64,000 bases of DNA, from NCBI GenBank assembly GCA_977020255.1, contig CDROCS010002923.1, positions 62,001 through 126,000 of the forward strand, written 5' to 3'. The notes below the pieces were generated by a model. That model saw only the letters and a list, made by a program, of their open reading frames with translations, did not search any database and was not told the DNA's origin. This document shows, one piece after another, positions 6,340 through 63,781 of the stretch. Numbering within the stretch: the first letter of the stretch is position 1; every line of letters starts with the position of its first letter. The position numbers were made by a program, and so were the translations under genes. Source of the stretch: Obrimoposthia wandeli (Eukaryota).

Positions 6340-6795
6340 TTCAAATTTACATTTCTTCAGCTATTCGATTCTTCTGGGATGTATTCCTCTTGGAAACTGT
6401 ATTGATAACTGTCGTGGACTCAAAGTTCTATTATTCTATATGGGCCTTCATACCGGTCAATAAATTTGCTTCTTTTAATTGGGTCCTTTTTACTTCAAAT
6501 ATCCTTTCCCCTCTTCTTTCATTGTCTAACTTCTTTAACCTTTCAGCTGAGATTTGTTGGTTCTTCCATACATCTTGAATGATATTTTCTTTATTGTTTT
6601 TTGATGCTTGAATTGTTATTTTTCTTCCAAAAATGACCTCAAACGGTGAATGTTTTGAAGAACTATTTACTGTTGCATTTATAGTAAATTCAATGTGTGG
6701 CAATAAATCGTGTCAACCTTTTCCTGTTTTTTTCCCCGTTACAATCATATCTCTTACCGTGCGTATAACTCTTTCTGCTAGACCGTTAGCTTGGT
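6340..6795 (-). pseudogene. Gypsy integrase C-terminal fragment
   Basis: QANGLAERVIRTVRDMI, LPHIEFTINATVNSSSKHSPFEVIFG and GPY motif (RYEGPYRII), with frameshifts. Confidence 0.85.
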
Positions 6796-6798
6796 TAG

Positions 6799-7030
6799 CT
6801 TGAAAATTTTGGGACGAATTGCGTTTCCTATACTATTACGTTTAGGACGAATTGATTCAAAAATATTTACAAATGTAGTAATGAACTATATACCAATTTT
6901 GATTCAAGTAAAATCAAATGCAATTAGTGAAGTACCAGGTTTGTTGCCTGAAGCAACAAAAGCTGCTAGTCAACTAATGACTGCAATAAAGAAAGTCGAA
7001 AACGACCAGCACAAATTCCTGTTGAAATAA
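6799..7030 (+). pseudogene. 5'-truncated small Polinton/adintovirus ORF preceding the major capsid gene (amphipathic, 'gasderminX'-like)
   Basis: LKILGRIAFPILLRLG parallels MKVFGCFAFPLLKRLG of ORF 33900-34163. Both lie immediately upstream of an MCP gene. Confidence 0.6.
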
Positions 7031-7101
7031 AATAAAAACTACAGAAAATTAGTGGTAGTATAAATAAACGTAGAAAAATAGGAACCATATTTGAGTAAGA
7101 A

Positions 7102-8329
7102 ATGGCATGTGCAAAATCTGAACTGTGTTTATTTGATCGTCCACTACCTCAAATTGCTATAGAAAATGGATGTTTTGAGAATATTTACCCGGTTAATAAT
7201 ATTACCGGTAGTACTATTAATACAATAGAGTTTAATATCCATTCGAGTGAAACAGAATATTTAGATTTGAATGATTCTCTATTATATTTGAAAATTAAAG
7301 TTTTAAAAAATAATGGAACAAACAGTTATATTGACATGATTGAAGCAGATAAATTTAGACCAACAAATTTCTTTTTTCCATACACTATTTAAAAATGTGC
7401 AAATTCATCTGAATATTACTCGTATTGAAGGAGGAAATGGTAATTATGCTCACAAGGCTTTGATTGAATGTATGCTTAATTATAGCAAAGATACGAAAAG
7501 TGTTTCATTAGATGGAATTAGTTATGATAGTAATGAGAATGTACGAAAAGGGTGGATTGAAAAATCTAGTGAATTTGAGTTGTGCGGTTCAATTCGATCA
7601 GATTTTCTTGAACAACCCAAATATCTGCTTCCCAGTATAAATGTCGGTATAAAATTGATTATTTCCAATGCAAATATGTCACTAAAACAGGTATAACTCG
7701 TAGAATAAAACATTTAGATGCTAAAATAAAAGTTAGACGTGTACGAGTTGAACCATCAGTTTTGATGGCTCATAGGATTGATTTGGAAACTCTAATGCGG
7801 TTTATCCATATAGACGGGGGAAAGTGGAACATTATTCACTACCTAAATTTTTATAAATCACCTATTGTTGATGATGAGCAATTCCATAAATTTGTTTTAG
7901 TTACATTTCAACATAATCTTAAAATGGATGGGTCTAGTGAAACAGACACTTCAGAATTTGATCATTGTAATGTCGGTTCAATTTGCCTTAGTATAAACAC
8001 TGATTTTGTTGAAACATACACTACAAATTTTGAAAAAGATGAATACATGTTTGCGTATATTTAATCACTGATTAGAAACATGAGATTATTGGATAATAAT
8101 ATAAAACATAGGTATAATATCTGAAGAGTTTAAGGAACGTTACTCATTTTTTATATTCATATTGGTCCCTGACTTTGATATAAATCAACATCAATTACCG
8201 AGACAAGGTAATCTAAGACTTGACGTAAAGTTTCACAAGGGATTGGAACATCCATCAAACCTTATAATTTACGGTGTTTTTGATACTGAAATTCAAGTAA
8301 CTAAAGGCAAACGTCCAATTGTAGGATGA
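7102..8329 (+). pseudogene. Polinton/Maverick major capsid protein (double jelly-roll), frameshifted
   Basis: N-term CAKSELCLF...YLDLNDSLLYLKIKV; middle FELCGSIRSDFLEQPKYLLP; C-term GNLRLDVKF...LIIYGVFDTEIQV, stop at 8327-8329. Split over several ORFs. Confidence 0.88.
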
Positions 8330-8704
8330 AGTAAGTGTTGAGTATTTATTGATCTTAATAAATGTAGTTCTAAACAGGTTAATACTGTGGAAATTGAATT
8401 GTTGGAACATAAATTCAAAGGAGTGTTTCCTATGGATAAAATACCGACTCTAAAGCCTGGCAGATATGTTGTAAATACTCAGACAAGTAATTTACCTGGT
8501 GAACACTGGATTGCGCTATTCGTGAGACGTGATAGTGTACACGTATTCGATCCTCTAGGAATTTATTATCCATCAGCACTCATTAGACATGTTTAAATGA
8601 GTGGGAAACGTTATGTATTCTATAATAAAACTCGTATGCAAACCCCATTAAATAATAATTGTGGTCCTTTATGTCTTTTATGGTTGTATCATCAAGTTTC
8701 TTAA
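8326..8704 (+). pseudogene. Polinton adenain-type cysteine protease
   Basis: GEHWIALF, VFDP, RMQ...NCGPLC give the His/Asp/Gln/Cys catalytic set. In-frame stop at 8594-8596. Confidence 0.88.
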
Positions 8705-9680: not shown

Positions 9681-10210
9681 TGTTATGTGCTCTTCGCACC
9701 AACCTTAAAGAAGAAAATTTTCAATATCATTACCATCAAAGTATCACATGAATAAATGATTTATTGATTTTATTTTAATGTTATTATCATATGAATAAAT
9801 AATTAATTGATTTTATTATTCTTTCAAGGTTAACTATAAACAAAAGTAATATAACTATAATCTTTGCCAAAGGTGCTGCCCGGTCTTCGGATGAAGGGCT
9901 GCCCTCTTAGGAGGCTCCGCAAGGGAGACTTTGGTCACTTAAAATATACTTAATCTACTTTTGTTTGAAACTGTAAGATTTATAGCGCGATATTTGAAAC
10001 ATTTTCTTGAAATCGCGCATACAACACCAGACCTGACTTGGGGTTGTATTTAGGATTTTGAGTCATTTTAAGCCATTTTAACGACACTCTGTCTAAAAAT
10101 GACTATATATATAGACTTTTTAGGCACTATAGTGTTGGTACTAAATCAAAGCGACAAGGCCACCTGGGGGGCTTTGTCGATTTGGTTTAGTACCGACACT
10201 ATATACTACT
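9681..10210 (-). mobile_element. Polinton terminal segment (AGTAGT end, subterminal hairpin, start of PolB)
   Basis: Inverted homologue of 17949-18584. Similarity ends exactly at ACTACT (10205-10210), which interrupts the Gypsy LTR. The inner end reads GWCEEHITYPKYLK, PolB N-terminal-like. Confidence 0.75.
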
Positions 10211-10575: not shown

Positions 10576-10921
10576 GTGAGTGACAAGTGATCGGAAAGGT
10601 GTCTGAACTTAGTTGATTATTTGAATTAAATTCAAACGAATTAACAAAAGAAACAGTAAAATTTCACGAGTTTTGATATAATATTAAATATTAAGATAAT
10701 GTAAGAAATAATATGTCGATTTATACTTGTCAATCGTGATGATAATTAATAAATATAATAAATCATTTCCACTGATTAACGCTCACTCATCTATTTAGAG
10801 ATCAGTTAAAAATATGTAAATTTTATTAATATAGGTAACACATCTTATCAAGGAATTAAATTAAATAATATTTTACATATACAATATAAATCTCAGTGAC
10901 GTATAACAAAGTCCAATTGAG

Positions 10922-11107
10922 AGTAGGTGGATGTGTCCGGTCTAATCCACACTCCCCCTCCCCCCCTTGTCCTTTAAAACCGTGCATGTGTGTGGAGTGA
11001 AATTTCGTGTAGGTGTGTGGAGTGAAATTTCACTTCACACACATGCACGGTTTTAAAGGACAAGGGGGGAGGGGGGGTGTGGATTAGACCGGACACATCC
11101 ACCTACT
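10922..11107. mobile_element. 186-bp foldback miniature element with Polinton-type AG...CT termini and 6-bp TSD ATTGAG
   Basis: ~83-bp near-perfect inverted arms starting AGTAGGTGGATGTG. ATTGAG lies at 10916-10921 and 11108-11113. Confidence 0.85.
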
Positions 11108-11286
11108 ATTGAGTTATAATAATATAATTTGGAAGAAGTAGTTGAAGACTTTACTATTCAGAAAATATTACGAAGGATAGTTGAAAACATGAAGCACTTT
11201 TGAGAAATAAATCATATATTCATTAGATATGGCGCTATATTAAATATATTATTGTTAAATATATCATATATTTATAAATCCCACAG

Positions 11287-14515: not shown

Positions 14516-17500
14516 ACACAAATAGTTACATATGATAAAAATGAAATAAATATGTAAACATTGATTATGGTAAACAATGGTTAAGTCCAATTGAACGTTA
14601 ACAAAAGTGACTTCAGAGCAAATGTCATGCTTATAGTTTCTTTCAATTTGAAGGTGTTTTGTGGATCACAATTTTTTCCAACCCGTCCAGAGTTTTATTG
14701 CAACCAACTTCGAGCAATAAGGAAAAAATCGAAGGTTACATATTCTTATTTTGTCAAAAGTAGAAAGAAGGGAAAACCGCAACGTTACATTACACTTCAA
14801 TTCAATATGCAGAAAACTCGAAGAATTTAATTTATTAGAATTCTTGGTCATTCGTCGTCAAACCCAAACCTAGCACCTTCTATTTATCACCTTTTTAGAT
14901 CAATGGCGCAAAAGATGGAAAGATTGTAAAAAAAACTCAAAGCTGGGATGCAGAATCTTTTTGTTTCAAAGTCCAAGAAATGATATCGACGAGGAATTGA
15001 GCTATGAACAAGAAGATTGGTTTCAATGTCTACAATAAAATAGTCAGTTTCTAGAAGTTATACTTTATAAAAAATTGCTTTAAATCGGTTATTTTTTAGA
15101 AATAATTTACTGAGTAACTGAGAATTGTACAACATTGATTGCCATTTATTTAACCTATTTTAACATTCCCATGCAGATGAAGCTCGAAGTTCCTGTGATA
15201 CCCGTTTCGACACGCTGATGGTCATCTGTGTCGTTATCGCCATCGCCTTCATATCTCGACTGCATAATTCCCGCCACACAAAGTGTGACATTCATTCCTA
15301 ACTCTTGTCATTCTACTCTATGCTTTTATTACAAACTGTGTTTTTATTTACTTCAGAAATGCGTCGAAAACAACGCTTCAGATAAAATAAGTATTTGTTT
15401 TTTCTTTAAATTTTGAAAGAATATTACGTTTAAAGTTCATATATAGTTCAATGTATAAATCTGAAAGAAACATCATTTGTAATGACAACGTTTTAGTTCT
15501 GAAAGCAACCAAATTTCACGTAATCCGATATTTAATTATATAAGAATTATCTATAATATATGATTCAATTTTATATAATAAAAGATATTTTAAATATAAT
15601 ACAACAATTAAATGCAATATATATTTTTTCTAATATTATTGGATGCCAATCAATAATATAAGTTATGAATGAAAGTCAATTAAAATTATGAAACCACTTA
15701 GTCTATTACAATTGTATGAAAATGATATACCACACTTATTTATATTCTAGGTTTAAAAAAGTACAGATACGTTTGGATCGCGTTTAATTATATCAAAATA
15801 ATTCATTCGACAATTATTTTTATAAAACAAAGTTGCATAAATACACAAATTTAAATTGACCCCGAATTTGTTGGGGATTAAAATATTATAATTAAAAATT
15901 TTAATGTATTTATCGAAGTACCCACTGTCGAAAAGCTATTTTAAGACTACAAAGGCCAGCACTTTAGGCCGTTTCATCCTACCGAGATTGTCAGCTGACT
16001 GTTATTGTCTTATGAAGTTGGATAAAACACAAAAAGAATTACTGCCCCTGGGGATTTTTCCGGCTTGCCAGTCGGTAATTTTCAATTGCAACATTTATAC
16101 CAGGAATTTTACTGCTTTTAATTATGTAGTGGTGCAGATTTACGCATGTGAGCCTGCAAATTTATTCAATGTCACTTACAACAGTAAAATGAATATTAAA
16201 ATTGGTAAGCATTGATATATTTGTCATAATTGCTAACGCCAATTTTTTAATTTCTAAAAATACAAGTTGAAAACAGAATTATTGTATATAAAAATTTACC
16301 ATTTAGAACAAATACTTTGATTAATATTCAAAATGCAGATAACAAATGTTTCATTTGGTCAATAGTTTGTCATTTCTTAGAATTTCAAATTCCACTTTAT
16401 TAAGAAAGAGTCTTGATATAAATTGCATGAATACTCATTAAAATATCATGATAAAAATTGCCAATGATAATTAATTATATTTAAATTTTTTTTAAATAAA
16501 ATCATTTAAGAATAAATGTTTATATGATTGAATTCCAATTCCAGCTGTAGTGGTTGCCTTCCAGCCTATTTATGGTCCTGAAATTGATCCATCCCTCGTC
16601 TCTTTGGATTCTGCAGCCGACTCATCCAATCAACTGACTACAACGAGTGGATAAACGTCATCACCAAAGCAGACTTTGAGGATTTCGTGCCAGTTATCCA
16701 ATTCACGAACAATGACTGAATGGATCAAATATTTCAGTCAGATAACGAGATGGAAGAGCCTCAATGAAGTGACAACAGCTGGTTGAATGAAATCGATGAA
16801 TCCGATTTCCAGTTAACATATGAGAGTTGGATGGATGCTGTCGATGAAGAACACTTCCAACCAGCTACCGTTTGATCCGGTAATTTTTGTTATGAATTTT
16901 TAAATGTTATATTATATATGTCATATAATTTATTTTAATTAGTAATATCCTTGAGACAAGCGATGCTGTCCTCCACTACGACAGCAATTCCTTCCTCTAC
17001 TACAACAGCGATGCCCCTCCTGAGTGAGTGCTTACGTCGATGCTCGCATGCCTTAGAGGTAATGAATAAAATAAATATAATCATCAGCATTCACAACAGT
17101 CGCATCCCGAACTTCTCTAGCTGCTATACCACATTCATCGATGTTGGTACCAGGGTCAACTTTGCCTAACTTAAGAGGTTAATTGAGAATTATCTAAAAT
17201 AATTATTGATTTTCTTTCAACAGCTTTGTCCTCAACGACATTGCGCTTCTACAAGCGCTGTATCCTCAACATCCGCCGCAGCACCATCAGCTGCTGTAGC
17301 CTTAGCAGCATTATCTACAAGAGCTGCCATATAGTTAGCGTCATAATCATGAGCTATAGCCTCAACTTTAGCAGTATCATCAACAAATTAAGGAGGATTT
17401 TGTAATATAAATAGTTGTATTCCCATTCAGTTAGGGGGATGTTTATTGTCGATTGTAGGAAGAAAGAGGCAAGGCCAAATTCTTAATAAGGCCTTACCAA

Positions 17501-17657
17501 AAAACGTATGGAAAACAGTGCTACTATAGAGTATCACCTAAATAACAAATACGTTATAGTTAAGGTGACAATAAGAAATAAAATTTTATTAAACGTAGGT
17601 GTAGATGCAAATAGAGGTAACTAAATTAAAATAGGCTAAGGTTCCATTTGCGCAACA

Positions 17658-17855
17658 GTGCAGTTTAAAAATGTTAATGAGGAAACTAAAACTTGGGTAA
17701 TTTCACATAAAGCAACAGTTTTCTATGATAATTTTGTAACTGAGATTGGAAGAAATTTAGATGAAAGAATTGCTAGTTATAACGAGGTAAGTAGTGGATG
17801 GACTCTAGTAAGAATTCACGATGTTAGCTTTGGTTTAACAAAGTTCACTGACATG
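17658..17855 (+). pseudogene. Polinton PolB N-terminal fragment
   Basis: YNEVSSGWTLVRIHDVSFGLTKF resembles the SGW motif upstream of Polinton PolB. Confidence 0.55.
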
Positions 17856-17948
17856 ATATATCTTTTTTCATTGCGTCTTGATGAGAGTATCGAAATGGAT
17901 AATAGTGCACAGAGTAATTTTCATGAGTCGTGGATAAAAACTTTCGAA

Positions 17949-18584
17949 AGTAGTATATAGTGTTGGTTCTAAACCAAAGCGTCTAAGCCCTCCCCCGGGG
18001 GCGGCTTTGACGCGTTAGTTCAGTACCAACACTATAATACCTAAAATGTCTTATTATAGTCATTTTTAGACAGAATATCGTTAAAATGGCTAAAAATGGC
18101 TTAAATTGACTCACCAGGTCTCAAAATCCTGCATACAAGACCAAGTCAGGTCTTTCAAGACTTGAAAAATCACGCATACTATGCCAACGGTAATAGGTCC
18201 CACCCCGGGGAGACCCTTTTGCTGCAAAATCATTTTGATGTTGTATGCGTGATTTCAAGACCATTTTCAAATATCGCGCTATATCTTACCGTTTGAAACA
18301 AAAGTAGATTAAGTAGATTTTAAGTGACCAAAGTCTTCCTTTTGGAGCCTCCTAAGATGGAAGCCCGTCATCCGAATACTGGGCAGCACCTTTGGCAAAG
18401 ATTATATTTTATATTACTTTTGTTTATAGAAAACCTCGAAAAAGACAAATAATAAAATCAATTAGTTATTTATTCATATGATATATAACATTAAAATAAA
18501 ATCAATAAATCATTTATTCATGTGATACTTTGATAGTAATGATATTGAAAATTTTCTTATGGTTGGTGCGAAGAGATCATAACA
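17949..18584 (+). mobile_element. Polinton terminal segment (AGTAGT end, subterminal hairpin)
   Basis: Starts AGTAGTATATAGTG. Inverted homologue of 9681-10210. Runs directly into PolB coding sequence. Confidence 0.75.
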
Positions 18585-20350
18585 AAAAGTGACAACATTT
18601 GCCTCCTGTATAAGGTCTTGGCCATCCTAAAAGGGATATAATTACTTTAATATCCCAGTTAATGTAATAGAGGAATATAATTTTTTAAATCATTTTGTAG
18701 ATATAGTTTATAGGAGAAAAAATAAGGGGACTACAATCAACTTAATTTTGCTCAAACACAATAATAAATATGCTGCAATTTCTAATTTGGATCGTCTTCT
18801 TAATTTAGATAAAGGAGCCTTACCGGTTAGGCAAATGTGTAAGTGGTATCATAGATGTTTTCATGGATTCAGATCCAAGCTCTCTTATAGCAAACATTTG
18901 ACGTTATGTACACTAAATCCTGATGACAATACGTCATATAGCATGCTAAAGATAAGGATTTAAAATTCAGGGATTGGGCAAAATGCATACCCGTGGAATT
19001 CAGGGTGTATGCTAATTTTGATTAAATTCTATCTTTACACGACCAATATGAGAGTATTCACCTACCGGCTTCGACAGGACTACTATTCTTAGGCCCCAAT
19101 ATAACCCAGTATCATGAATTTTCAGGTTCAAATTGTATTTTAGATTTTATGTTAAAATTAGAAAAATTAGTTACCACTATTATCAAACCGTGGTATGATC
19201 TTACTGCTCATCAAGCAATGATCCTGACTGACATAGACTGGGTTAATTTTAATTCGTGTCGATCTTGTTATTTGTGTGGTACCCAGTCTAAGTAAGAGAT
19301 AACGATCATGTTACGGGGCGATAACTGGGAGCGGCGTGCAACTTTTGTAACCTTGGCTGTCAACTTCCTAAATTGGGTTTCATAATCTCAAAGGATATGA
19401 TTTATGTCACATATTTAAATACGCATTGGGTACATAAAGCTCATGGGAATTTCTTGTATACCTCAAACTTCGGATAAATATTTATCTTTAACTGCATATA
19501 CTAAATTCTGCAGTTAAGATTTATAGATTCCCTGCAGTTTTTGAGAGGGTCATGAAAAATATTTAACGATATCTTTGAATGCATGACCAATTACACAGTC
19601 AGTGTTCCCAGCTTCGGTTAATGATAAGGGGATTTCTTCTTATAAATTTGCAAAAACATTTGCTGATTTACAAAATACAATAGAAATCCCGCGCATAACT
19701 GAATTCGAGGGTGTGAGTCTTCAAGATTATAATGAGGCACATACATTTTGGGAGAGTAAATGTCGAATTCTTCTAAGGTATATGCTTTATTATATGATGT
19801 TAGACCTTTATCTTTTAGCTGATGTGTTTGAGGCCTATCCTGTAATTTGTTAGCTAAATATGTGCTAGATTCCATGAATTTCTTTAGTTTACCTGGTCTT
19901 TCATGGGCAACGGCAATAAAAACTCTTAACATTAATGTCCAGTTACTGCAAGATCCCACGATGTATCAAATGTATGATTATGTTATACGCAGTGGAATTA
20001 CTTTTGTCAACAAAGATCATGTTGAGAAAAATCAATCAACGGAGATTCTGTACATCGACATTAATAATGTGTATGGGCCGGCGCTTGCTCAACCTCTACC
20101 ACATACCAACTTTAAGTAGCTGTATGATGTGAAAGAGTTGAATAAGTTGATGACAGATTTGGCTACTGTTGATATAGTTTCATCGAATGTCGGATATTTG
20201 GTTGAGAGAAGACAGAATCTCAGGAAGAAAATTAAATGGTACCCAATGATAGAGATTGGGCAATGGACGGATTTTGCCCAATTACTACATGTAAAATATA
20301 AAAATATGTTAAATCAGAAAAATATTAAAATTTGTTGTAGAACATTTAGT
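18560..20350 (+). pseudogene. Protein-primed family B DNA polymerase of a Polinton, degraded and 3'-truncated
   Basis: SDNICLLYKVLA, ISNLDRLL, FHNLKGYD, YMMLDLYLLADVFE, SLPGLSW and motif A YIDINNVYG. Motifs B and C are absent. Confidence 0.88.
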
Positions 20351-23101: not shown

Positions 23102-23977
23102 ATGTCAACGGAATCCGGCGATAAACCTACTTTTGCACAAAGAGTCTCAGCTCGTGTCCGTAGCACTGGTAAATTTCTTTACAACAAAGAGACTCACGAA
23201 TTTTTTGGTCGTAATTGTGGCAGCTGGTTGAAAATCTTGATTTTCTACATCTGTTTCTTCAGTTATCTAGCATTTGCTGAATTCAGTCTCATGATGATAT
23301 TCACCAAGTTTTTCTTAACAACAGGGCCATATCTGTCCGGTGAAATCAACATTCTTCGTCTCAGTCCTGGCCTACAAATGTCGCCAAATCCAAGTGGGAA
23401 GACGTCAGCATTTGTGTTTACTTTGAAACCGAAGGGAATTATGCAAAAACTAGACAACTTTGTAAAGGCTATTCGGGAATTACCACCAATTCCGCCTTCA
23501 GATGCTGCTAATTGCAGTATAGACCCTGTTAAAATAGAGCCCAACGGTACAACGAAGATGTGTCCATTTGATGTCACATACCTGGGACCTTGTGCCAATC
23601 CCAGTCGAGAGCTGAAGGACCGGAATCTTTCGTGTGTTTTTGTTTCTCTCAATCGAATCTACGGCTGGATCCCTGATGTTATCAATACTAAAATTCCCGG
23701 TACTGAACTCAGGTGTAAAGGCAACACAATTGGTGACCAAGCCAATATTAAGTCTATCAACTATTTCCCTAACATCTCAGGATATGGCTTTTTCCCACAC
23801 ATGTACTACCCATATTTGAGACAGCTCTACTACCGCAGGCCCTATGTAGCTATTCAATTGGATATCGACAAGTACGTACTGGTTTTTGTGAAGTGCGAAT
23901 TGATCAATGTGAAACAATTCAATTATAAAAAGTTTGGGCAAATGAAGTTCATTTTAGAAATTATTAGTACTGACTGA
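23102..23977 (+). CDS. ATP1B: Na+/K+-ATPase beta subunit, single exon
   Basis: FLYNKETHEFFGRNCGSWLKILIFY plus a TM helix; LSPGL, LNRIYGWIP and YYPY motifs; six ectodomain Cys in three expected pairs. Intact 291-aa ORF. Confidence 0.93.
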   Translation: MSTESGDKPTFAQRVSARVRSTGKFLYNKETHEFFGRNCGSWLKILIFYICFFSYLAFAEFSLMMIFTKFFLTTGPYLSGEINILRLSPGLQMSPNPSGKTSAFVFTLKPKGIMQKLDNFVKAIRELPPIPPSDAANCSIDPVKIEPNGTTKMCPFDVTYLGPCANPSRELKDRNLSCVFVSLNRIYGWIPDVINTKIPGTELRCKGNTIGDQANIKSINYFPNISGYGFFPHMYYPYLRQLYYRRPYVAIQLDIDKYVLVFVKCELINVKQFNYKKFGQMKFILEIISTD

Positions 23978-28066: not shown

Positions 28067-30959
28067 AATAGTTATTAACGGTTTTCATTTTTCAAAAATT
28101 CGTTGGAGAGCTTGGAAAAATGGATGGGTGCTTACAAGGGAATAGTCTCAAACGGTATTCTTCAATCTTAATAATTTTAATTTTATAGTTTCTTCATATT
28201 AAATTGACATTGAATATTTGCTTAATATTTGCTAATTATATATATAATAAAATTTTTAAAAAGTTACAAAAATTTACAAAACTCTGGTTTTTAGTTTCTG
28301 ATATTTCAATTAATTTGCTTATTTTCATTACGAATTTTTAAAACAAAAGTGTTTTTGTAAATAAATTAATGTTTTTTTATGTATAAGCTGCTTGTTTGGT
28401 TTTTTATTTTTACAACTTCTTTTATTAAGTCGTGGCTTATAGAATAATTTAGGATGTAATTGTAAATTGGATAAACGAAAATTTTAGTTCGAATACTGTC
28501 AATTTTTTTAATGTGAAAAATTATTATAACTTATTTATTATACTGTTATTCGTACACATGTTAACATTTTGTTTAAATCTGTTTTAAGATTGAGAAAATG
28601 TTATTCAATATTTAATTTAAAGTTAGTTTTCATAAATAGTTTAGATAAAAGTACTTTATAACGAAATCCATTCTTAAAATGATGTCATTCGGGATAAATA
28701 AAGTGTAATTTAACTTAAACACTACATATGTTAATATTTTGTTGACACTAAATAATAAGTTACTCTAAACATAAACCACTGGTAATAAGCAAATTAAAAG
28801 TAAAATAAATACCTTTATAAAAACTATTAATGTTTTAAAATGTTCGTTAGGAAAAATTAAAGAGTGAGTTAATTTTTGTAGTAATTAAAATTAAACTCGT
28901 GGAGTTAGAAACAAAAGAGTTTTCCAAAAACCCTGAAGTTACCCCAAATATATAACGTTAATAGCAGTGTTAGTATTTTTATAACACGCATAATGGTTTT
29001 TTCATATAATGGGAAGTAAGAAATAAGTTGTTTTTTATAAATATGAGTAATATTATTTATAATTGATTATTTTTGGGTTGCATTTACCATTTTCATATTT
29101 TCTGAAGATGAGTAGAGCTTAACAGGTAAGTAGGTAGATGTGGCAATGACACGATGAGGTCAAAATGTAGGTCATGCCCTTATCGATGACTCATACCCCG
29201 AGGGGTCTTTGTCCTGAAAGACTAACATCAAGTAGGGGGATGGGCGTCTTTCAGGACAAAGACATTATGATTCATAGGGTATGGGACAAGTTAAGGTCAT
29301 AATGAGGTCAAAACAATGACTCATCTTATGACTCATCGATGACTTATCGATGACTCATTGCATGACTCATAATCTATTTTTAGTAACATATTTTAAAACT
29401 ATATATATTTTTATCTAAAGGTTGTATTAACATGCAATCTTCATCAAAAGACATCTCGTATATGTGTGTGTATGTTCAAGGTAAAATCATATATAAGTAT
29501 GTGTAAGTATGTGTGTGTATGTGTGTACTGCCTCGATTTAAAACTATATATATTTTTATCTAAAGGTTGTATTAACATGCAGTCTTCACCAAAAGACATC
29601 TCATGTGTGTGTGTTCAAGCTTAACTTACATACATGTGTGTATGTATGTGTGTACTCTTTCAACTCGCGTGTATAATACCGCTATTCCTATACAACAAAG
29701 GAACTATTCATCATAAAGACATCATGTTTAAATACATCAATTTCCTAATTATATTAATTAAACCTGGGATTATTTAAGCATTATCATAAACACATCAATT
29801 AGATTATTTGAACAAAAGTCATTTAATTGAATGTATTATATAAATTTAATTAGGACATATCTAGGTAATTATATATCATGTTTATTTTATTTTATTCGAA
29901 ATTTTATTATATTATCCATTATTAATTAAAATAGACTTTGTTTTACTGAATCAATAAAATTAATTAATCCAGGAAGAGTATATAAGAGAAATATTTTAGT
30001 TTCAAATCATAATTTATTAATAGAAGAATTACGACAAAATTTGTTAAAGGAGCTAATGGAGAGCAAGCACACTCTGGCGGATAAGTGTTATCTTGCGAGG
30101 GCTTGAGGCTCCGATAGGCTCTGGAAGTAGAAGAGATCCCAGGTTTCATTGGCTGGTCATCAAATTGTTTGCCACTCATCTTGCAAAATGAAAATGGCGA
30201 TGAGGCCCTTGATCACAAACATACACACACTTGAGAACGGACCCAAAGTCCTTATTAAGACTACATAAAACAGATATCAGAGGGGAAGGGAAAATTTTTC
30301 AAAAATATGTTTTTAAACGACACAAAAAATTATTTTTTAAAACTTTAGCTACTTACTATTAAAAGTAGCTAAACGTGCTATCTACTTATAAAAATTAAAC
30401 TAAATTCAATGCAAATATCTACTCATAAAAATAAGTATTATAAAATTTCTAAATTTATTTAATCTAAATTCAATTAAACGATCTACTCATTAAAAATAAG
30501 TATTATATAATTTTTTATAAATATTTTTAAACGTTCGTCTATGTGTTATAATAAAGACAGTCTTGTACTGCATTTATATTGCAAAAACTTGCAACTTTAT
30601 GTAAATTAAATAATTTCTAAATAAAGACAAGTATTTTTTGAAACATCTATTCCTTAAAATCTCAAAGGAGAGTAAAAATATATACATAGACATATAAAAG
30701 TTAATACAATTTCATCCGGGTATAAAAAGTGGCCATAGGCAACTGATCGATTTTTATCTTCCAACTTGCGTTTACCATCGCTACTGCTTAAGGTAATTTT
30801 ACTTAATCTTACAGTTAAAAGTTGCTGATTTAGCGAGCTTATGCTTTGTTGTTGTACACGCTCGCTAACGCCACTCTCATAGACGATAAAGTAATTAGAG
30901 TGTCTAATACCTGTCTGTCGGAGACTAATACCTTTAGCTCTCATCTGAGATTAACCTTC

Positions 30960-33230
30960 TGTAGTCTCTAAGCTATATGATTTTGGACGTAGAAAATTCC
31001 CTTGCCTATAGCTAAATAATCCCTTACTCTAATCTTTAAATTTGCCAATTGCTGTATTAAGCGTCTTATAAAGCGGATGGGTTTTTTGAAATTTCGAGGT
31101 ATCCAACAGTCCATCAGCAATCATATCAAGTAACAATGTTTATTGAACATTTACATTATTACACTTCAAGAAAAAACTATCAGTCTCACCTGCTATAATT
31201 CTAATGTCACAGTTAATTGGAGCTCGATATTTCTCCAACTGCTCATATTGTAGCTCATACATACGAAGTTTGCGTAAATTTAATACTGCCTGGCCTATAT
31301 AACTAGGACGATCCAAAACAATATTTTCCTTATCCAGTAGAACTGTAATAAGCTCCGTATCGATTTCGATTGTCCTATGAAACTGGGCTTTACTACAATA
31401 GGTAACCAGCTTCTGTAGAGTATTACAAATCCGGAGGTTAATTCTTTTCATTAGATTCTCAATGAGTTTTCCAAATAAAGAATTCACCTTCAGTTTGTAA
31501 TACTCTCGCTAGAAATCTGTTGTAGCAGCTCTATAAGAGAATTGTCCTCAATATATTGTGAATAAAAACCTTAGTTTGTTCAATCTGTATTGCTCTGTAT
31601 ACAAAATCTACCTTAGCACCAAGTCTAACGTACATTTGTAGCAATCTAGAATGTACAACTAAATGTTTCTTAGGATAATGTGTTGGTAATAATTTTTCAG
31701 CCTTACTAGAAAAACCCTGATGGACGCTGTTTAATTTGAGCAAGGGGAAGATCGTCAAATTTATTATGTAGCTCATTGGGAATGGATAAATATATTTCCA
31801 ATAAATGAGCGAAGCGACTACATGATAAATCTGTTGATTTTAAGCTGGAAATAATATTCCCACACTCTAACCGATCAGTTACCCAGGAAAATTTACCACA
31901 AGGTAAAAACTGGGACAGTACCCACTCGTACAAGTTGTTCACATCTATATACAAAAGTTCAGTACCGTTGATAGCGTCCACCATGTGTTCATTCACGAAG
32001 ATCATGCCCCCGCAAATCCCGGAGCGGAAGATACAGTACATTTCCGGGTCCTGGATGAGCTCGACTCGTATAGGAGGAGCAGTAGAAGCAGGAGAAGAAT
32101 CCAGGTGAAGCAGTGACTTGAATGCACTGGCGAAAGTCAGTACTGTAAAGAGAAATAAAACATTTAATAAAATCATTACTTAGTGAAAATCATTACTTAT
32201 TGAAAAATTTACTCAATGAAAATTTAGTTAAGGAAAATTAACTTAGAAAAAATGAGTAAAATACAAACCAGGGATGGGGAATAAATTGAGCGGCTCCAGC
32301 TCGTCGTCAGTAATGGCCTTGATCCGGAATGCTGTAAAAACATCTGCTAGAAGGTAGACATCCATCTTCATATAGACCAGCATATAGTATCAGAGCGATG
32401 TGCAGCCGCTCTGAATCCAGACCATCATCGTCATCTCATATTGTGCTGACTTGATCTTCTCATCCCACTTTGGTGTTAAGCTCATAATTTTCACAAAGAG
32501 CAGTCTCTGATACTGCCATATTATACGGGAAGATGCCCTTAGCGCTCACCAGATGTTGCAGGAAGACCGAATGTATTAGAGGAGTCACACCCAAGTTTTC
32601 CACAGGTTTTTTAAGTCCGCTGTTCAAAAACTGTAAGAAATCTATCAAATCGAATACAGACTCCTTTAATATACACCACCATAGCCCGAAATTTCTCTGT
32701 TGATTGAGATATAACAGAGACATTCCAGTCAGAAAACTTGCACAGTGCGTGTTTTAGTATTTGGTGCACATCATTACCCATCAAATTATGAAAAATGACG
32801 GGAAAAGAGCGATTCAGTTTTCTTGATACGTTGCATTTTGTATGTGCTGCTCCGAGGTACTCGCCCGTCATGTGATCGTGATCTCAAACTTTGTTTGTCA
32901 GTTTTTTCTTACATAGGTAACAGATTTTTGCAGCATTGAAACTCGATACCTGTTTTTGTGTAAGTTGTCTCATCTCCTCGATAGCATAATTTTTGTACCA
33001 TGGAAGAACAACCTATTTCGCCAAGTCCGCTAATTATGTGTGTACCCTGTCGTGGCTGCAACTGGAGACATGAGCATACCGGCTGAGATTGAAAGTTGAA
33101 TCTGATGATGTATTCCATGTGGCAGCAGCACAGCCTCAAAGTCCGCATAAACAGCAAAAGGCGGAAAAATCGTTTTTGAAAAGTCCTTAAACTATTCGAT
33201 GTCCACCGAGTACAGATGGTTCCACCTTTT
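30960..33230 (-). pseudogene. Polinton protein-primed PolB, frameshifted, with a 126-nt GT-AG intron (32143-32268)
   Basis: DHMTGEYLGAAHTKCN, FHNL, YMKMDVYLLADVF, motif A YIDVNNLY, motif B NSLFGK, YIGQAVL and motif C-like AGETDSF. Confidence 0.9.
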
Positions 33231-33244
33231 CTCTACGAACCAAC

Positions 33245-33801
33245 TATTTTGCTTCCGTAATCTCAATCAGCGCAGACAACACTAAAATCAACTGGATTTA
33301 TCTTCATTCGAATATCTGCACTTACACCAGGTAAAAGATACTTTGGTTGCTTAAAGAAATTCAAATGGAGACTCCCACAAAGTGACAATACTTTAGATTT
33401 CGCAATTGAAGCTTTTTTTCTTTCTTTACTATCATCAAACCCAATTGCTTCAAGATTAATCAATTTCGTATCATTATCGTAATTCAGTAATGTTTTAATC
33501 ATTCACATTATTGAGACTGAGAATCACATCCTTGAAAAAAAATATATATTAGCTGATTTGATATCCATACCATTATCCAAATCACCTCCACTTTCCTTTG
33601 TAACTTTCAATTTAAAGAGAAATAAACTATCATTCAAATCAAGATATTGAGTATTTGATCCATTTATAATGAATTATAAATCCAGAAAAGATGTCCCGTT
33701 AACCGTATTTGTTGGAAAAATTTCTTCAAACTAGTCCTATCAACCCCAACCCGAGGTATAGGTTTATCGAATATACACAATTCAGTTTTAGGATAACTCA
33801 T
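33245..33801 (-). pseudogene. Polinton major capsid protein, N-terminal half
   Basis: MSYPKTELCIFDKP...YLDLNDSLFLFKLKV...SLCGSLHLNFFKQPKYLLPG, homologous to 7102-8329. Confidence 0.85.
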
Positions 33802-33899
33802 TACTTCAAAATTGTTCCACCTAGTTTCAAACGTTTGTTTATACTCGATGCTTTAGATATTTTCTTACGTTTATAACCACTTCCCTTTTGAGTTTTCTT

Positions 33900-34163
33900 T
33901 TACCAAAATTCAGCTAGATTTGGAGAAATTTCATTCAACTGATCCAAGGCAGCAATTTTTAGTGTGGGAAGTAATTTCTCATCACCAGATAAGTATTTTG
34001 ATCCAACAATAGCAATAAATTTCCCGAGTCGCTTGAGTAGTGGGAAAGCAAAACAACCAAAAACTTTCATCCATCCAGATCCATACCGTTTTCCCAGCAA
34101 ATAAGGCAAATCACCTTCTTGCATAGGTTTACTATATCCATCGATTATACTTGAATCAATCAT
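33900..34163 (-). CDS. Small Polinton/adintovirus ORF between penton and hexon ('gasderminX'-like, GSG motif)
   Basis: RYGSGWMKVFGCFAFPLLKRLG: a G-x-G site followed by an amphipathic helix, in the expected position. Confidence 0.65.
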   Translation of the reverse strand: MIDSSIIDGYSKPMQEGDLPYLLGKRYGSGWMKVFGCFAFPLLKRLGKFIAIVGSKYLSGDEKLLPTLKIAALDQLNEISPNLAEFW

Positions 34164-35182
34164 AATTTACGAAAATGAACCGTTAAACTTGTTTTAGCTC
34201 CGTAAGCAAATGTAATTAATCTTACAGAATCATTAAATATATTAACTTCAATATTGTTTATAGAAGAAGAACTCACTGGAATATACATGAGATTTTCAAT
34301 TGGAATATGTATAACATCCTCATACTTGTACTTTTCCTGTTGAACCCAAATTGCTTTTATTAATGGAAGTTTAGTTCCTCCTACGAATATTAGTTCAGTA
34401 ATACTCGTGTAAATATAAATGTGATTATATGCATTAGTTATTTTAGGAATAATCTTTGCTTTGAAAACAATATTTTTATTTTCAAAGTCATTTCCATCAA
34501 AACCGATAATTGAGGCTAATGATTTATCTATGACAACTTTAACAATATTTGATTTCAATTTGAAATGAATCAATTTATTAACTAGTTTAAAGTTTTCAAA
34601 TACATTTGGTAACACTGTTTTAAAATGTTTACAAATGCTTTCACTATCTGGAAAAAGAAAATCATTGGGAACTGAATATATTTTCCTATCTTGTTTAGTG
34701 AATTTGTTTTTTATCTTGAATGTAATTATTGGATACTTGATATGTTTATCCATAATTCCCGAAACCACATGCTTTCCTTTATCAGAGTTAGTTGGAAATC
34801 CATATTGTTCTGCAACAATCTCATCATTAAAAACTATTTCAAAATTATCACCTTGTCCTGCAATTTGAATTTGATTCTCTTTATTTAAAAAGATTGTGAA
34901 ATCATATCCTGTATTAATACGAGCCAAATCCATATGACCCATGTCAAATAGTAAAGTCACAACAGTTACTTTATCAGTTTCTCGTTGAGTAATATATTTA
35001 ATCTCAGTTTCACTTTGAATAGATAGAGGAGAGTAATTGAAAGAAAATTCCGTAAAATCAGCTTCCAAAGCTACTGGTAAATTGATTGAGCTTTGATAAT
35101 CAATACTAAAATTATTAGCAGTATTATTCGGTTGAGTTAATGGTGAACCATTACTTAATAATACAACATACATTGAATTCAT
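34160..35182 (-). CDS. Polinton minor capsid protein (penton), open ORF
   Basis: N-term YVVLLSNGS...NTANNF; C-term HIYIYTSITE...LPLIKAI...YIPVSSSSINNIEVNI...SLTVHFRK. Uninterrupted frame. Confidence 0.85.
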   Translation of the reverse strand: MNSMYVVLLSNGSPLTQPNNTANNFSIDYQSSINLPVALEADFTEFSFNYSPLSIQSETEIKYITQRETDKVTVVTLLFDMGHMDLARINTGYDFTIFLNKENQIQIAGQGDNFEIVFNDEIVAEQYGFPTNSDKGKHVVSGIMDKHIKYPIITFKIKNKFTKQDRKIYSVPNDFLFPDSESICKHFKTVLPNVFENFKLVNKLIHFKLKSNIVKVVIDKSLASIIGFDGNDFENKNIVFKAKIIPKITNAYNHIYIYTSITELIFVGGTKLPLIKAIWVQQEKYKYEDVIHIPIENLMYIPVSSSSINNIEVNIFNDSVRLITFAYGAKTSLTVHFRKL

Positions 35183-35998
35183 TCTATTTGAGAAGCTAAT
35201 ATCCAACTAGGTTCAGTATATCCATGCCACTTAACTCGATATTGTTTATGCTTTCCGCTCCCTTTTGTCTCTAAGATTTCCTGAATTATATATACATTTG
35301 GTTTCTCGGGCAAGACTTGTAATTCCTCATGATAAATTTACCAGTGGTTATATTATTGGTTTCATCTTCATTGAAATACATTAACGGTACATGTATATTA
35401 TCAATTTTAGTTATACGAAATACTTCATCACTCCAATTCTCTTTGAAATTCTTTATAAAAGGAGTAGTACTAATTTGAGAAATACATACATAATCACCAA
35501 CTTTATACTTGAGTTTCTTTACAACTTGACTTTGGTTACAACGTTGCCTAATTTCTATAGCATTCTAATCTGTAACACCAACAAGTCTCTTCCCATCTAA
35601 TGAGGAGTGTTCACTATGATTGTATGCATGTATTATTTGAAGTAAAACAGTGACCCAGGACTTATTTTCCTGCTTAGTGAAATACGTTTTCAATCGAACT
35701 CTTAATGGAATAGCTCGTGCAAATTTACTAAAGACATCAACAAAAGTTAAAATATATCGATATCCAGCGGTAATACTCGCATATGGAATCATTTCTATCA
35801 AATCTGCTTGCCATAAATCATTTGGGCCGCTCGTTTTGTATGATCTCGTTGGAAACCGACATCTCATTGGTTTGTTTAAGCTAATTGATTTCTCAACCAC
35901 GCCTGAGTTTCCTTTTTCCTCTTCTTTGTCTCTTTTGATAATTTTGAAACTCCTGTGTAACCAACGGGATGACTTGGATCAAACCATATTTTCTCCAT
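35179..35998 (-). pseudogene. Polinton retroviral-like integrase with C-terminal chromodomain
   Basis: MEKIWFDPSHPVGYTG, LWQADL...YRYILTFVDVFSKFARAIPL, GKF..EELQ and YIIQEILETKG...YRVKWHGYTEPSW. Frameshifts and an internal deletion. Confidence 0.88.
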
Positions 35999-38587
35999 TT
36001 CAACAAGACGATTTGATTTTTATATTGAATTTAGGAATAGATGGATGTGATCCCATATATAAATTCATATTATTGAGGCTATTTCTTAGCATTAGTACTA
36101 TGTTTGAATAATCATAGTTAAAGCGTTTTTCATTTTTAATTAATGCATATTATTTTTATTTCTTTTATTTAAATTAATTTAAAATATAAAGTTGATGTTT
36201 TTTTCTTCCTTTTCTTTTCAGAAAATCAGACATTCTAAAAAATAATTTGAATTATACCTCAATTTTTTCTAATATTTGAAACAAATAGTTCTGAGTATAT
36301 AAAAAGGTTTCACCCGTTTGTTACTAACACATAAGTTAAATATTAACAAAAGCTTGATTCTTCTGTTTAATTTGTTTATTTTAACTTTTTAATTATTATA
36401 AAAATATTGTGCCAGTTAAGACTATTCTAATAATATTTTACAATGTATAGCATATTCTGTTTACACCAGAACACCAGATGGTAAAATTTATTAAAATAAT
36501 AAGTAATTTCTGGATTTTCTTTCTTCCTACGTTTATAATTTTTCATTTTTACAGTTTGGCATAGATATTTGACTTCTGAAATAATTAAAATAAAAGGCAA
36601 AAATTTACTCAAGTTCGATTTCAAAACATATTTAAATTATGTTATTATATTAACTATTCTGTTTTGTTTGGACTTAGTCAGGTTTGCGATAAACATAATA
36701 TACTGTATAAAGAAACTGTTCAAAATAACTACGATTTAATATAATATATATAAAATTAATTGAAGCTATAATAAAAAAATATATGAAATAAAGTACTGGG
36801 AATAATAAATAACCATTATTAATCTATGTATATCTGTTGTTAATAATTAATTCTGTAAACTATATAGCATAAAAATATGGTAATAAATAATTTTCAATAA
36901 ACATAAATAATACTGATTTACGCCAATTTTGCTGATTTTTTTATATAGACTTGAATTAGATTGAGTGAGAAAATTTCAAAAATGATTATACATGTTTTAT
37001 GAGAGAGACTTGTTTTCTGAATAATTACAAAATAATATATTGAATATTTATATAATTATTATAAGGATTATAATCACATAATAATATAATGACATTTAAT
37101 CAAGATATCATTTAGGTTATAATCTAACTAGTTTTAGTAAATATATTTAAATAATACTAAACCCTTTTAAAATGTTTGATCAAAAGTTGAAAGAATTTAT
37201 ACTGTGAGATCTTATAGAAAATGTCTAGTGTAAAAAAAAGCAATGAAAGATTATTACTCAATTATGGTTTAGAAACTTTTGCATTTCATTTGTTGCATCT
37301 CTCGTATTTGAGTGCAGTTACATTTAGATATTAATTTTGAGGAAATAACTGGTAAATCTGATGTAAATTATACAGAAATCTTTGCAAATAACACTCTACT
37401 TAGAATGAAATTTATTATAGAAAAAATTATCAACTCATGAAATAAAATAATTATACTTCCGACAGATTTATTGAATCAAAAATATCACAGAATTTCACAA
37501 ATTACATTTTTTGCACAAAACGAAAATAACAAAAAAAGAAATCACAGATAACTAAATCAGAAAAGTAATGGCCAATCGGTTTGAAGGGAATATTTTATTG
37601 GAAATCTGACTAAAGCCAACCAGTCAGCTTAGACCATTTAAGTCTTCAATGATCTGAAAAATAGTTCTGTTCAATGAGATTTAAACGATATAAATCTTTC
37701 TTAATTTTAGGCGAGGATATAAATAATTCATTTACTCGAAAACTTACTTGATCTATAAATATACTCTGGAGCAATATTTTTAAATAAAATCAACTATTTG
37801 TGAAATAATTCTTAAACTTATTTAATGTATATCGGTCAATATTATAAAATGTTAAAATAAATATATTAAATAATTTCTTTGCTCTTAAATAATGTAATTT
37901 TTAAAAATTATAAACTGTATTTTTTGACAATTTTATATTTGGATTCAATATTGGACTTTAATTAAAGATACGTTAATTGTAATGGATTATTATTGTAGCC
38001 TTAATAGATAATGCTTAATAGATAATAATCGGAAAGAAAAATAGCAAGGAAGCTCAGAAGTGAAGGAAAAAATTGAAAAATTGGTTTGATTAATTAAATT
38101 CAGAATAAGAAGATAAGATTAAGTCATAAATAGATTTGGTCAAAACGCTCTTTTTAGAAAAATAATAATAATTGTGATATAAATTATCGATAGAGAATGT
38201 TCAACGATGTTTAGAGAGATTACAGTTTCAAACAGTAGGAAGAAAAATATAGTATAAAAGAGAGCACAAAGAATTAAGATTAATATTTGTTGTATTTGTT
38301 GCTCATTAATTTTGAATATAATTCTGTCTTATTATCAGATGAAAATTTTCCCGATAATTGGAAGAGTTATGTATATTTTTTAAGAACTGTAGATTTAACA
38401 ATATTTTTATATATTTTCAAGCACAAAATAAGTCAACATTTTTACACTTTCAATCATTCGTTTTACAAGATAAAACTACTCTACAAATGTTGGTTCCCTC
38501 TGAAATCTCCCTTAAAATAACTGGTATTTGAAGTGTAGTTGTATTTGTTAAAGCGTATGTTCAGAAGTACTGGGCATGTAACGTCCT

Positions 38588-54790: not shown

Positions 54791-56596
54791 ATCCCATTTG
54801 ACCTTTAACTCATTATCCAAAGAAATGCCACCGGGTTGCTTCGGATATAGGTCAGATTTCATGCATAAAAGATAGCCCCGCATAAAGGGGAACTAAGGAT
54901 TTTGATTATTATAAGTCTTTTTAGATGATTAGAGGATAATCTCATGGTAGTTAGGGAAATCTCGTGAAAGTTGAGAGGTTTAAGAGGAAAAAATATAACA
55001 AGTATTAGATATTAGATATTAAATATAACAAGTATTTAACGAAAGAATAGCATAGAATCAATGAAATCAGACCAATATCAAGCATACCTCTTTCATCAAA
55101 GCAGACATAATGATGGATGTTTTTAAATAACAGACATCATTTAGCATTACTTATACATCAATTTTGATTGGTTGAAATATTCTACGTTACAGTCATTTAA
55201 AATATTCTACGTTGAAGTTGTTTAACTATAAACATTTTGTTGTAAAAACTAAGATATTAAGACTTATAATATTTGAGTTAGATGATTAGGTTAGAGTGGA
55301 AAAGGAAAATATTGGACATTTTATAAGAATGAATCTAATAATCAATAAATTGAGATATATCTATCCATTACTAACATGTCTATCGTTTCATGAATCTTCT
55401 TTCAAAAACTTTCAACCCTAACTTTCAGAAAAATCACCAAATACCATAAATTCATATATTTCCATAGATAAATATTGATTATTGAAAAACTGAAATTATA
55501 AATATTATTATTATAAACATCTAGTCTCCCTATCATCAACCAGCATACGGTGGCTGATAATAGGAATAATGATTTTTCTAATATGTCAATGAGATTTAGA
55601 GTATAAAGTGGAGTAATGTAGCTAATTATGGAGAAGACTTAGATGTTTTGAAGTTAAATTGATTATTATACAAGCCCACATGCAATTCCTTATAACAAAT
55701 GCATATACCAATAATACATATATTTCATCTATATCATAACACATGTTGTAAATCCCTATAAAACCTAATGCACATAATTCATCATATGTATTGTATTGAT
55801 TAATCTATTCTATCAAGTAGCTATTGATTATTTAATCTAGGGAATATGTTTAATATTTCTAAGATAGCATAGTTTCTCATTATTTTTTCAATATCGTTTC
55901 ATAAATCATTTGATTCAATAAATATCAATATTTCTATCAATATAACCTTAACTTTCGGACTTCTTATTAAATATTAATAAATAAAAAGGTAGAAAATAAA
56001 GATACGTACCTTTATTTGTTAATTCCATAGATTTCAATCAGGAGTCACTAATCCGCTGGGTCCAATCTTGTATATTCCATTGTAATCCAGTTGAGTAGAA
56101 ATATAGTTTTGATCCATTGATATTTCGGAAAAATAGCATTATAATATTGAATTTGGGTTCTTGTAGGTAATAAAATTGATTTTGGCAAGTATTTGATCGA
56201 TTCTTTAATAATATCAGAAATAAAGTAAGCGAATTTTCCCATCGATATATAAAATTGTAATAGGCTTCTGGAGAAAATGCATATCTATGAAAAATACTTG
56301 GACGTTGCTATAAATCAGCTTGCATGTTTATTTAAATATCTATTCGTTTATATAAAACTGAGACTCAGATTAACCAATAAGAATATATGTTTGCAATGTT
56401 ACTAAAATTAGATTATTTTTATAGTAACTCTATAAGAAATTAGAAAAGAAGAGAGAAATTACGCGATGGTTAAGATGTTTAAGGAAAATAGGGTTGGTGG
56501 AATTCTGGAAAAGAAGAAGCCGTAGCAACTATCCAAGGCAAGTTAAATTATAACGATTATAAAGTATTTCAGGAAACACGACACGGAATAGTAAAT

Positions 56597-62334: not shown

Positions 62335-62636
62335 TACCTCGGGGGTTCAAAAAATGTTACGTCCCCGGAACGTATCGATTTTACTTAAATAAGCCTCTGG
62401 CTGTTGATTTTAGGTTCATCCCTACAAAATCAATCATTCAACTTCAACAAACATGCCCAAAACAAAATTTCTCAAAATCCCGGTTTTTTAGTGGGAAACA
62501 TAATGTATAATTTGGAACAAGTCTCAGACTATACATTATTACTTATACACAACTAAAATTTACACACAAAAATATTGAGGGTGAGGAATATGTCACAAGA
62601 TTGTCTGGGATATGTCACAAGAATGTCTGGAATATG

Positions 62637-63140
62637 TCAACCGTTCCTGTCCTTCAGGAACAGCAAGACCTGCTCCAGTGGTAGTTCCGGATACGATGGT
62701 GGGCCGCCATTGTATAGTAACATTTGCTGGCGCATGGTGAGGTGTTGACTCGGGTGGAAAATGGTAGTATATCGCCCGTGTATTCCGCGATTTCCGAGCC
62801 ATATTTGACGGCCACGCTGCCATGAGCGGGGGTCGCGAGTTGATCGGTATTTCTCGCGGAGGGCGAGTTTTGCATCGCGACGGCGCGCGATACAGTCGGG
62901 GCAATGGCAGTGCTCGCCACCAATACAGCTGGTGAGCGAATGGGTGGCCTTGTGGCGCCCTCGACACTGTAGTGTCCATTCCGCGAAGGGAGTACGGCAA
63001 AAGGGGCAATTGACATGTCCTTCGGGTCGAAGTCGGGCCCAAGTATATAGGCAGGATTCGTGGAATTTGTGACGGCAGCCGACAGGGGATGCTGATGCCG
63101 CCCAAATTTTCTCCATGCATACAGCGCACTTCATCTGCAT
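62637..63140 (-). CDS. Intronless RING-H2 protein 1
   Basis: CAVC...CRHKFHESC...CPFCR (C3H2C3), followed by CIGGEHCHCPDC. GC-rich. Confidence 0.8.
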   Translation of the reverse strand: MQMKCAVCMEKIWAASASPVGCRHKFHESCLYTWARLRPEGHVNCPFCRTPFAEWTLQCRGRHKATHSLTSCIGGEHCHCPDCIARRRDAKLALREKYRSTRDPRSWQRGRQIWLGNRGIHGRYTTIFHPSQHLTMRQQMLLYNGGPPSYPELPLEQVLLFLKDRNG

Positions 63141-63475
63141 AAGAAAATAACTCCTTTCAATTTGGGTTCACCGTTCTCATCGTTAATTTAAATTTTATTT
63201 CAAAACGAATCCTTAGTTATCTAATCCTACCGAGTTTTGTTTCGATTTTAGGCATGTTTACGCATTCACACTAAGCATTAAAAAATTGTCTTTTTTAGAA
63301 ATTCAGTATAATAATTACACTTTCAGTTAAACATCATACATAAAAATGGTAATGGTCAATTTACAGTTCACAAGATTATATAATTATGATTACAATTATG
63401 GTAGCTAATTTATCGCGGTATGCGATACACAGGGTAGTTCATGATGTCACGTTCAAGTCAGAAAGTTACCTTCGA

Positions 63476-63781
63476 TTATTGTTGGGGATTGGGCTGGCCT
63501 GTGCTTCGCTCCTCCACGCAGAACGAGCACCAGCAATCGCAGATGGTTTTCCAGCAGTGTACGATGGGTACCACTGCTTGGAGGCTGTCCTGGTTGTACA
63601 CGTAGTGTACTGAGAAGGTCGCTCTGCACATCGGGCAGGTTGGGAAGTCGAGGGGATTGTTGCTGTTGGCGATGGGAATCCACGTCTCGAGGCATTCGAT
63701 GTGGAAGAGGTGGTCGCAGTTGTTGGGCTTGGTGTAGAGGTCCACGATGCTCTCGTAGCAGATGGAACATTCTCCAGACAT
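63476..63781 (-). CDS. Intronless RING-H2 protein 2
   Basis: CSIC...CDHLFHIEC...CPMCR, followed by CWKTICDCWCSFC. Confidence 0.82.
   Translation of the reverse strand: MSGECSICYESIVDLYTKPNNCDHLFHIECLETWIPIANSNNPLDFPTCPMCRATFSVHYVYNQDSLQAVVPIVHCWKTICDCWCSFCVEERSTGQPNPQQ

Follow-up and report, generated by a model that had tools for sequence, protein, structure and literature searches.

In the formation of a solo-LTR, recombination between end repeats removes the interior of an element and leaves a short unit within the original TSD, while snap-back or copy-back defective viral genomes derive both of their ends from one terminus by fold-back. Among Polintons, kb-sized non-autonomous forms were reportedly listed by Kapitonov and Jurka in 2006. 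Full-length Polintons or Mavericks are described as having a 6-bp TSD, AGT-starting termini and a gene set of integrase, protein-primed PolB (pPolB) and ATPase (PMC8097293; PMC6431247). A Maverick expansion is reported for Dugesia (10.64898/2025.12.11.693146), and non-autonomous Polintons were reported to be apparently absent from Anolis (PMC3014272). Two described cases come closest to the element reported here. The Goblin MITE, derived from Ozma (Tc1/mariner, Aedes), is likewise a hairpin-like miniature and was explained by template switching between ends with microhomology (PMC3814204). At eri-6/7 of C. elegans, gene-less Polinton TIRs (Polinton_CE_TIR) are likewise tied to local rearrangement; these fragments of the TIR measure 744 bp and occupy a single locus, and no TSD-bounded two-ended hairpins are described in the available part of that source (10.1101/2024.01.15.575659). 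No Polinton-derived MITE or solo-TIR was found in the full-text literature searched, although Repbase and Dfam may hold short Polinton derivatives; the wording "non-autonomous Polinton" occurred once for Tlr1 and once as the bare name Polinton-N1A_NV.

Within the window, the whole 64,000-nucleotide stretch of Obrimoposthia wandeli DNA analysed here, a first-pass annotation had called a 186-bp inverted-repeat element with a perfect 6-bp TSD ATTGAG and AG...CT termini, which was confirmed at 10922–11107 on the plus strand and is referred to below as the mini. It starts with AGTAGG, ends with CCTACT and has the layout t-a-loop-a'-t', with arms of about 85 bp and a loop of 15 nt between them. The 27-bp terminal sequence t (10922–10948, plus strand), common to the parent Polinton family by exact genome matches, is followed by a variable C-tract (10949–10967, plus strand), whose partner G-tract at about 11063–11080 is the putative junction site on comparison of tract lengths. 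Between these tracts lies the inner palindrome a-loop-a' (10968–11062, plus strand) with two 25-bp direct repeats at 10981–11030, and the element closes with the right terminal sequence t' (11081–11107, minus strand). The two copies of ATTGAG occupy 10916–10921 and 11108–11113. The insertion hit an older host repeat (10775–10921) which resumes to the right of the mini and was found in 40 other places, including empty-site paralogues. The target hexamer was single in three of the four paralogues examined, and the ATTGAG duplication therefore came from the insertion.

The mini had been placed in the last intron of SCYL2, and this placement was upheld. Positions 10574/5 were joined to 11286/7 in a spliced contig (run X4), so the intron is real; it spans 10576–11286 on the plus strand with GT..AG ends, the exon upstream of it matches SCY1-like protein 2 (E 1.9e-20, best named hit) and the following exon reaches a stop at 11608. 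No run contig bridges the mini. As DNA the mini folds at −103.3 kcal/mol (z −23), with none of 200 shuffles equally good, and as RNA at −169.7 (z −22.9), in agreement with the strong RNA stem that had been claimed; a stem of about 85 bp would form in the SCYL2 pre-mRNA.

The terminal 27-mer t gave 15,282 exact matches (7723 forward and 7559 reverse) in the 1.35 Gb genome searched, with 0 for the control and 0 in viral_contigs. One Polinton TIR group supplies about 15,000 exact termini in this genome, that is about 7,600 elements' worth of ends, which is an unusually large load. Pairing of the first listed ends returned TSD-bounded elements of 11.5, 15.8, 15.9, 16.1, 17.4, 17.5 and 27.8 kb (7 of 13 pairs tried), and single stretches with the same terminus were TSD-bounded in five of five cases (297, 808, 3,246, 6,065 and 8,189 bp). 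The search for autonomous Polintons bearing the terminus of the mini, suggested by the first-pass annotation, thus returned TSD-bounded elements with the expected genes: an integrase (rve, E 1.5e-8) with a chromo domain and a protein-primed PolB (DNA_pol_B_2, E 5.5e-18) were identified with Pfam in the TSD-bounded 17-kb elements, together with a packaging ATPase (Pox_A32, E 1.4e-6 to 1.9e-6). Many ORFs of the family are interrupted. ORFs at the positions expected for the jelly-roll capsid proteins and the cysteine protease look capsid-like, but are candidates without a Pfam match. The termini read AGTAGG...CCTACT (5'-AG...CT-3') and the TIR measures about 95–125 bp.

The parent of the mini is a Polinton by its 6-bp TSD, termini, integrase, pPolB and ATPase, since PMC8097293 characterises Mavericks by such a TSD, by termini starting with AGT and by these genes. 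The two inward-facing modules also correspond to those of the described elements, and the TIR of about 100 bp falls inside the published range of 46–1,447, with parents of 11–18 kb (PMC8097293; PMC6431247). By comparison with the same descriptions, the terminus here is AGTAGG as against (AGT)2 or (AG)3, differing at base 6 from the (AGT)2 of PMC8097293, and the subterminal palindrome, the number of ends and a TBP-domain ORF are further features in which the parent differs. This ORF (PF00352, E 5e-12 to 1.7e-11) adjoins the ATPase in the parent family and also in a second, nested Polinton family, with examples at L082:5988–6686, L067:7086–7481 and L092:5737–6333, all on the minus strand. No clear report of a TBP domain in Polintons was found in the literature searched.

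One kind of parent end, designated B, has the structure t-a-loop-a'-interior with a palindrome a-loop-a' of about 110 bp; in L067, an element of 8.2 kb, the hairpin of the left end lies at bases 38–148. The earlier proposal that the mini is built only of Polinton ends was borne out, as its first 148 bp (10922–11069, plus strand), comprising the terminus and subterminal palindrome, are 96.6% identical to the left end of L067, and the mini is this B end plus t', which is absent from the B end. B-type matches, with the palindrome taken as mini bases 1–148, number 2,849 genome-wide, minis included. A resemblance of the terminal 14-mer to Polinton ends elsewhere in the window had also been noted, and it is indeed present at 29129 (one mismatch) and at 51134 (two mismatches), but the similarity goes no further, with 15 of 30 and 17 of 30 bases in agreement, respectively. 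Neither could be retained as the parent, the genes near 29129 being 65–75% identical to those of the parent family, and both ends belong to other families. The 29129 end was also rejected as parent on its relatives, which match only from base 22 and have different termini; it belongs to a decayed Polinton of a different family with pPolB and integrase fragments (29129–36010).

A genome search with the mini gave 40 scored places, all 94–100% identical, with a perfect 6-bp TSD in 26 of the first 30. Two-ended units were counted by a search demanding exact 17-bp ends, so that the figures are lower bounds: at least 177 at ≤171 bp, 262 at 172–202 bp and 113 at 203–434 bp, or 552 in total at ≤434 bp. 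The 172–202-bp class is a sharp peak on a size continuum, with 8.5 copies per bp of length as against 0.49 at 203–434 bp. At 262 copies as against 15,282 ends and 2,849 B ends, under search patterns of unequal stringency, the minis amount to about 3% of all ends and about one-tenth of B ends. A perfect TSD was present at six of the six short loci checked, among them L224 (160 bp) and L228 (146 bp), which are joined at the self-complementary GAAATTTC; this junction is possibly a second collapse point. It should also be noted that two-ended units of 60–61 bp, consisting of t and a partial t', occur at G000:C636:61665–61987 (three clustered) and C745:176824–176883.

Of the approximately 262 minis, 85 were examined at the level of the locus, 38 picked for their similarity to the one in the window and 47 taken in contig order (three of the 38 were also among the first 50 by contig order). 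They comprise 60 loci with a perfect TSD, six with one mismatch, 13 with an inverted host flank and six others. At the inverted-flank loci (13 of 85; eight of the first 50 in contig order), as read from the genome assembly, 21–208 bp of the left host flank is copied, nearly perfectly, in inverted orientation on the right. Polinton sequence follows the t' side in 12 of the 13, and two of these 12 also have Polinton on the left. A far-end TSD matching the outer flank was recovered at six of the nine such loci checked, namely L103 (element of 11.7 kb), L113, L135 and L146 (13–17 kb), L029 (570 bp) and L153 (415 bp); the last two are TSD-bounded with the host-flank copies inside and the whole interior gone. 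No far-end TSD was found for L118, L139 and L027, the last within the 10 kb read. Host flank can be copied only after integration, and the inverted-flank loci are therefore chromosomal fold-backs.

Other loci record switches of different reach. At L116, a second mini, 9.6 kb distant, supplied t' and 12 bp of flank. L109, although included in the 60 perfect-TSD loci, is really the end of an element of about 20 kb that carries the same mini-plus-flank junction at both ends, which indicates exchange between ends. L015 and L019 also run on into interior sequence, L015 rejoining it right at the terminus without a flank copy, and L170 is a B end with a partial fold-back in which about 10 bases of t' are copied before the sequence returns to the interior. 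L111, L121 and L136 are without explanation among the mini loci. The loci as a whole demonstrate template switching at the B-end palindrome on integrated copies, onto itself, onto a neighbouring copy or onto the opposite end. In three TSD-bounded minis (L024, L141 and L143) the right arm is of the TACTG/CACTG type known from non-B ends, so that two different ends are needed for their formation.

The C-tracts were compared between arms and classes. Among 12 fold-back loci, six have a shortened tract in the right arm and none in the left. Of 59 TSD loci, 17 show such a tract on the right as against two on the left (p 0.0002), and the 29 unbiased TSD loci show it in 12 and two cases, respectively (p 0.005); the fold-back and unbiased TSD frequencies do not differ (p 0.73). 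This shortening of the t' arm suggests that both classes share a junction in the G-run that follows a'. Short C-tracts were absent from the 19 B loci but occurred in about 8 of the 85 listed non-mini B-type rows and in about 5 of 25 other ends, and their presence on some long ends counts against the common-junction reading. Left-right concordance of the tracts gave no distinction between the classes (p 0.91, 0.07 and 0.91).

With respect to divergence, there was no identical pair among the 3,486 formed by 84 minis, a lack which assembly homopolymer errors could inflate. With the C-tracts left out, distances over 122 positions averaged 4.33 among 29 unbiased TSD minis, 4.07 between these minis and 20 B ends, and 3.76 among these B ends, which include L187, a mini with a mutated end. 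The minis are no closer to one another than to the ends of long elements, and the end variants CTTGTCC and CCTGTCC are found in minis and long ends alike. Neither t nor a of the minis yielded symmetric variants.

Taken with the fold-back loci, this suggests that the TSD-bounded minis, including the window copy, are probably a recurrent end-collapse product, or solo-TIR, of this abundant Polinton family. Under such a mechanism the palindrome, as a hairpin or cruciform, would stall or break a host replication fork; a 3' end at the G-run after a' has, on integrated copies, often primed on the wrong template. In a fold-back, a strand that has passed t-a-loop-a' pairs a' with a, copies t' and the flank, and then rejoins the element. 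Were the switch made instead to the far TIR, where a' and t' directly repeat the a' of the B end, and completed there, the interior would be lost and a hairpin of 170–190 bp kept between the original 6-bp TSD. Collapse across this fixed direct repeat predicts the sharp size peak at 172–202 bp. The TSD would then have been made by the integrase when the long parent inserted, and the mini itself need never have moved. The interior loss and TSD retention proposed here are those of a solo-LTR, with the differences that the parent ends are inverted, that a direct repeat arises only through the inverted copy of part of the TIR within one end, and that the product is palindromic. Goblin is described as one founder family amplified after excision and gap repair, as opposed to the many separate births, chromosomal intermediates and self-synthesising parent here (PMC3814204). 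An in-place origin is demonstrated for about 17 of the 85 loci, those with inverted flanks or ectopic copies, and not for the TSD class with the window copy. No locus was seen as both a long element and a mini: in the genome the window flank has no allelic copy, its matches being to the repeat only, and the four runs represent one sample with short contigs.

It was further claimed that the mini is mobilised as a self-amplifying MITE, which was left unsupported, or is an extreme internal deletion, which is closer to the present reading except that the loss would be recurrent and guided by a built-in hairpin and not a one-off. That the minis are a true Polinton MITE, descended from a single founder or a small number of founders which integrase and pPolB amplified in trans, is unlikely. 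The mini is a short non-coding sequence with the TIRs and TSD of an autonomous partner, both termini are intact, the sizes form a sharp peak, and, as the first-pass annotation had anticipated, the copies examined share length and differ in their 6-bp TSD, the 59 perfect TSDs tallied being 59 different sequences. Repeated in-place collapse also keeps the TSD, however, so that same length with different TSDs cannot separate collapse from a moving MITE and is no proof of MITE mobility. Against a MITE stand the copy number, which shows no excess over the ends of the autonomous partner, the lack of identical pairs and of greater likeness among minis than among parent ends, and the range of lengths from 60 to 200 bp, in which the peak is already predicted by the direct repeat. 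The star-like divergence of the minis is also compatible with an old burst of a MITE at the time of the parents. Birth as snap-back defective genomes is rather doubtful in our estimation. Here the new strand would fold at the B-end palindrome during protein-primed replication of a free Polinton and run off at the terminus, and the resulting 186-nt hairpin would be duplicated and inserted once by the integrase, with recurrent births outside the chromosome. The geometry expected is exactly t-a-loop-a'-t', and the TSD, the missing mini clades, the junction signature in the G-run and the rejoining at L015 would all be accounted for. Such molecules cannot, however, yield inverted host flanks or ectopic flank copies, and the fold-backs demonstrated here differ from snap-back and copy-back genomes in having copied the host chromosome, and so in having occurred on integrated DNA. 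Matching arms would also be predicted, yet symmetric variants are lacking and the right arm sometimes belongs to a different type of end, and the replicons would presumably outnumber their parents, yet minis are a small fraction of the ends.

That the intron holds a selected RNA hairpin or a miRNA precursor by which SCYL2 is regulated would agree with the stem predicted in the pre-mRNA, but is highly improbable: none of the 27 Rfam hits of the mini reaches its gathering score, most being matches to hairpins in general (best MIR7724, 78 of 100 bits), the mini has hundreds of further copies outside this intron, and at base 114 the window copy has a mismatch private to itself. A MITE of another superfamily with merely Polinton-like ends was entertained because a 6-bp TSD alone is not unique to Polintons, with IS3EU and hAT6 as other superfamilies of this kind; this is effectively refuted by the match of 148 of the 186 bases to ends of elements encoding Polinton integrase, ATPase and pPolB. 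Nor is the mini itself an autonomous Polinton, as it has no genes and, at 186 bp, is about 1% of the parent length, as against the coding capacity and 12–25 kb of such elements.

Returning to end collapse, a broader reading may tentatively be offered, to which we give limited credence: the built-in hairpin would be a programmed weak point of this Polinton lineage, repeatedly yielding a minimal two-ended unit of 146–190 bp both in place and as snap-back molecules insertable by the integrase. If true, this would define the smallest cis sequence that a Polinton needs to replicate and integrate, and the minis would preserve defective-interfering Polinton genomes as fossils in the genome. What is understood of how Polintons replicate and integrate comes mostly from their gene content, and here the fate of the ends is readable from thousands of copies and graded end rearrangements. 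The results suggest that giant insertions may be removed leaving a dated, TSD-bounded footprint, and they provide a visible birth route for whole-hairpin MITEs. Should any mini be shown to insert alone, 186 bp would set a limit on what the Polinton integrase requires in cis.

A number of further features were observed in the window. An interior fragment (pPolB region) that shares about 85% identity with the parent family and is unlinked to the mini lies at 17403–20206 (plus strand), and another decayed Polinton fragment occupies about 6700–8600 (plus strand) within the SCYL2 gene span, with ORFs which we take to be capsid-like and protease-like. The segment 8810–9421 is an empty-site paralogue of the 17.4-kb element G000:C12:59056–76485, with both flanks contiguous and TATGAA present once. 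Hairpins of 37–40 bp are found at 10128–10203 and 17949–18058, in a repeat common, in inverted orientation, to 9711–10210 and 17949–18560, and a similar hairpin lies beside L027. An intronless Na/K-ATPase beta ORF at 23102–23977 (plus strand) had no relative in a protein search. From 51134 to about 54800 a Polinton-like end is followed by 17-bp and 52-bp tandem arrays, with no partner end seen in the window. Decayed retrotransposon ORFs with RVT_1 are present at 56492–58433 (plus strand) and are presumably BEL/Pao-like, and two intronless RING-finger ORFs at 62593–63841 (minus strand) are possibly of mobile-element origin.
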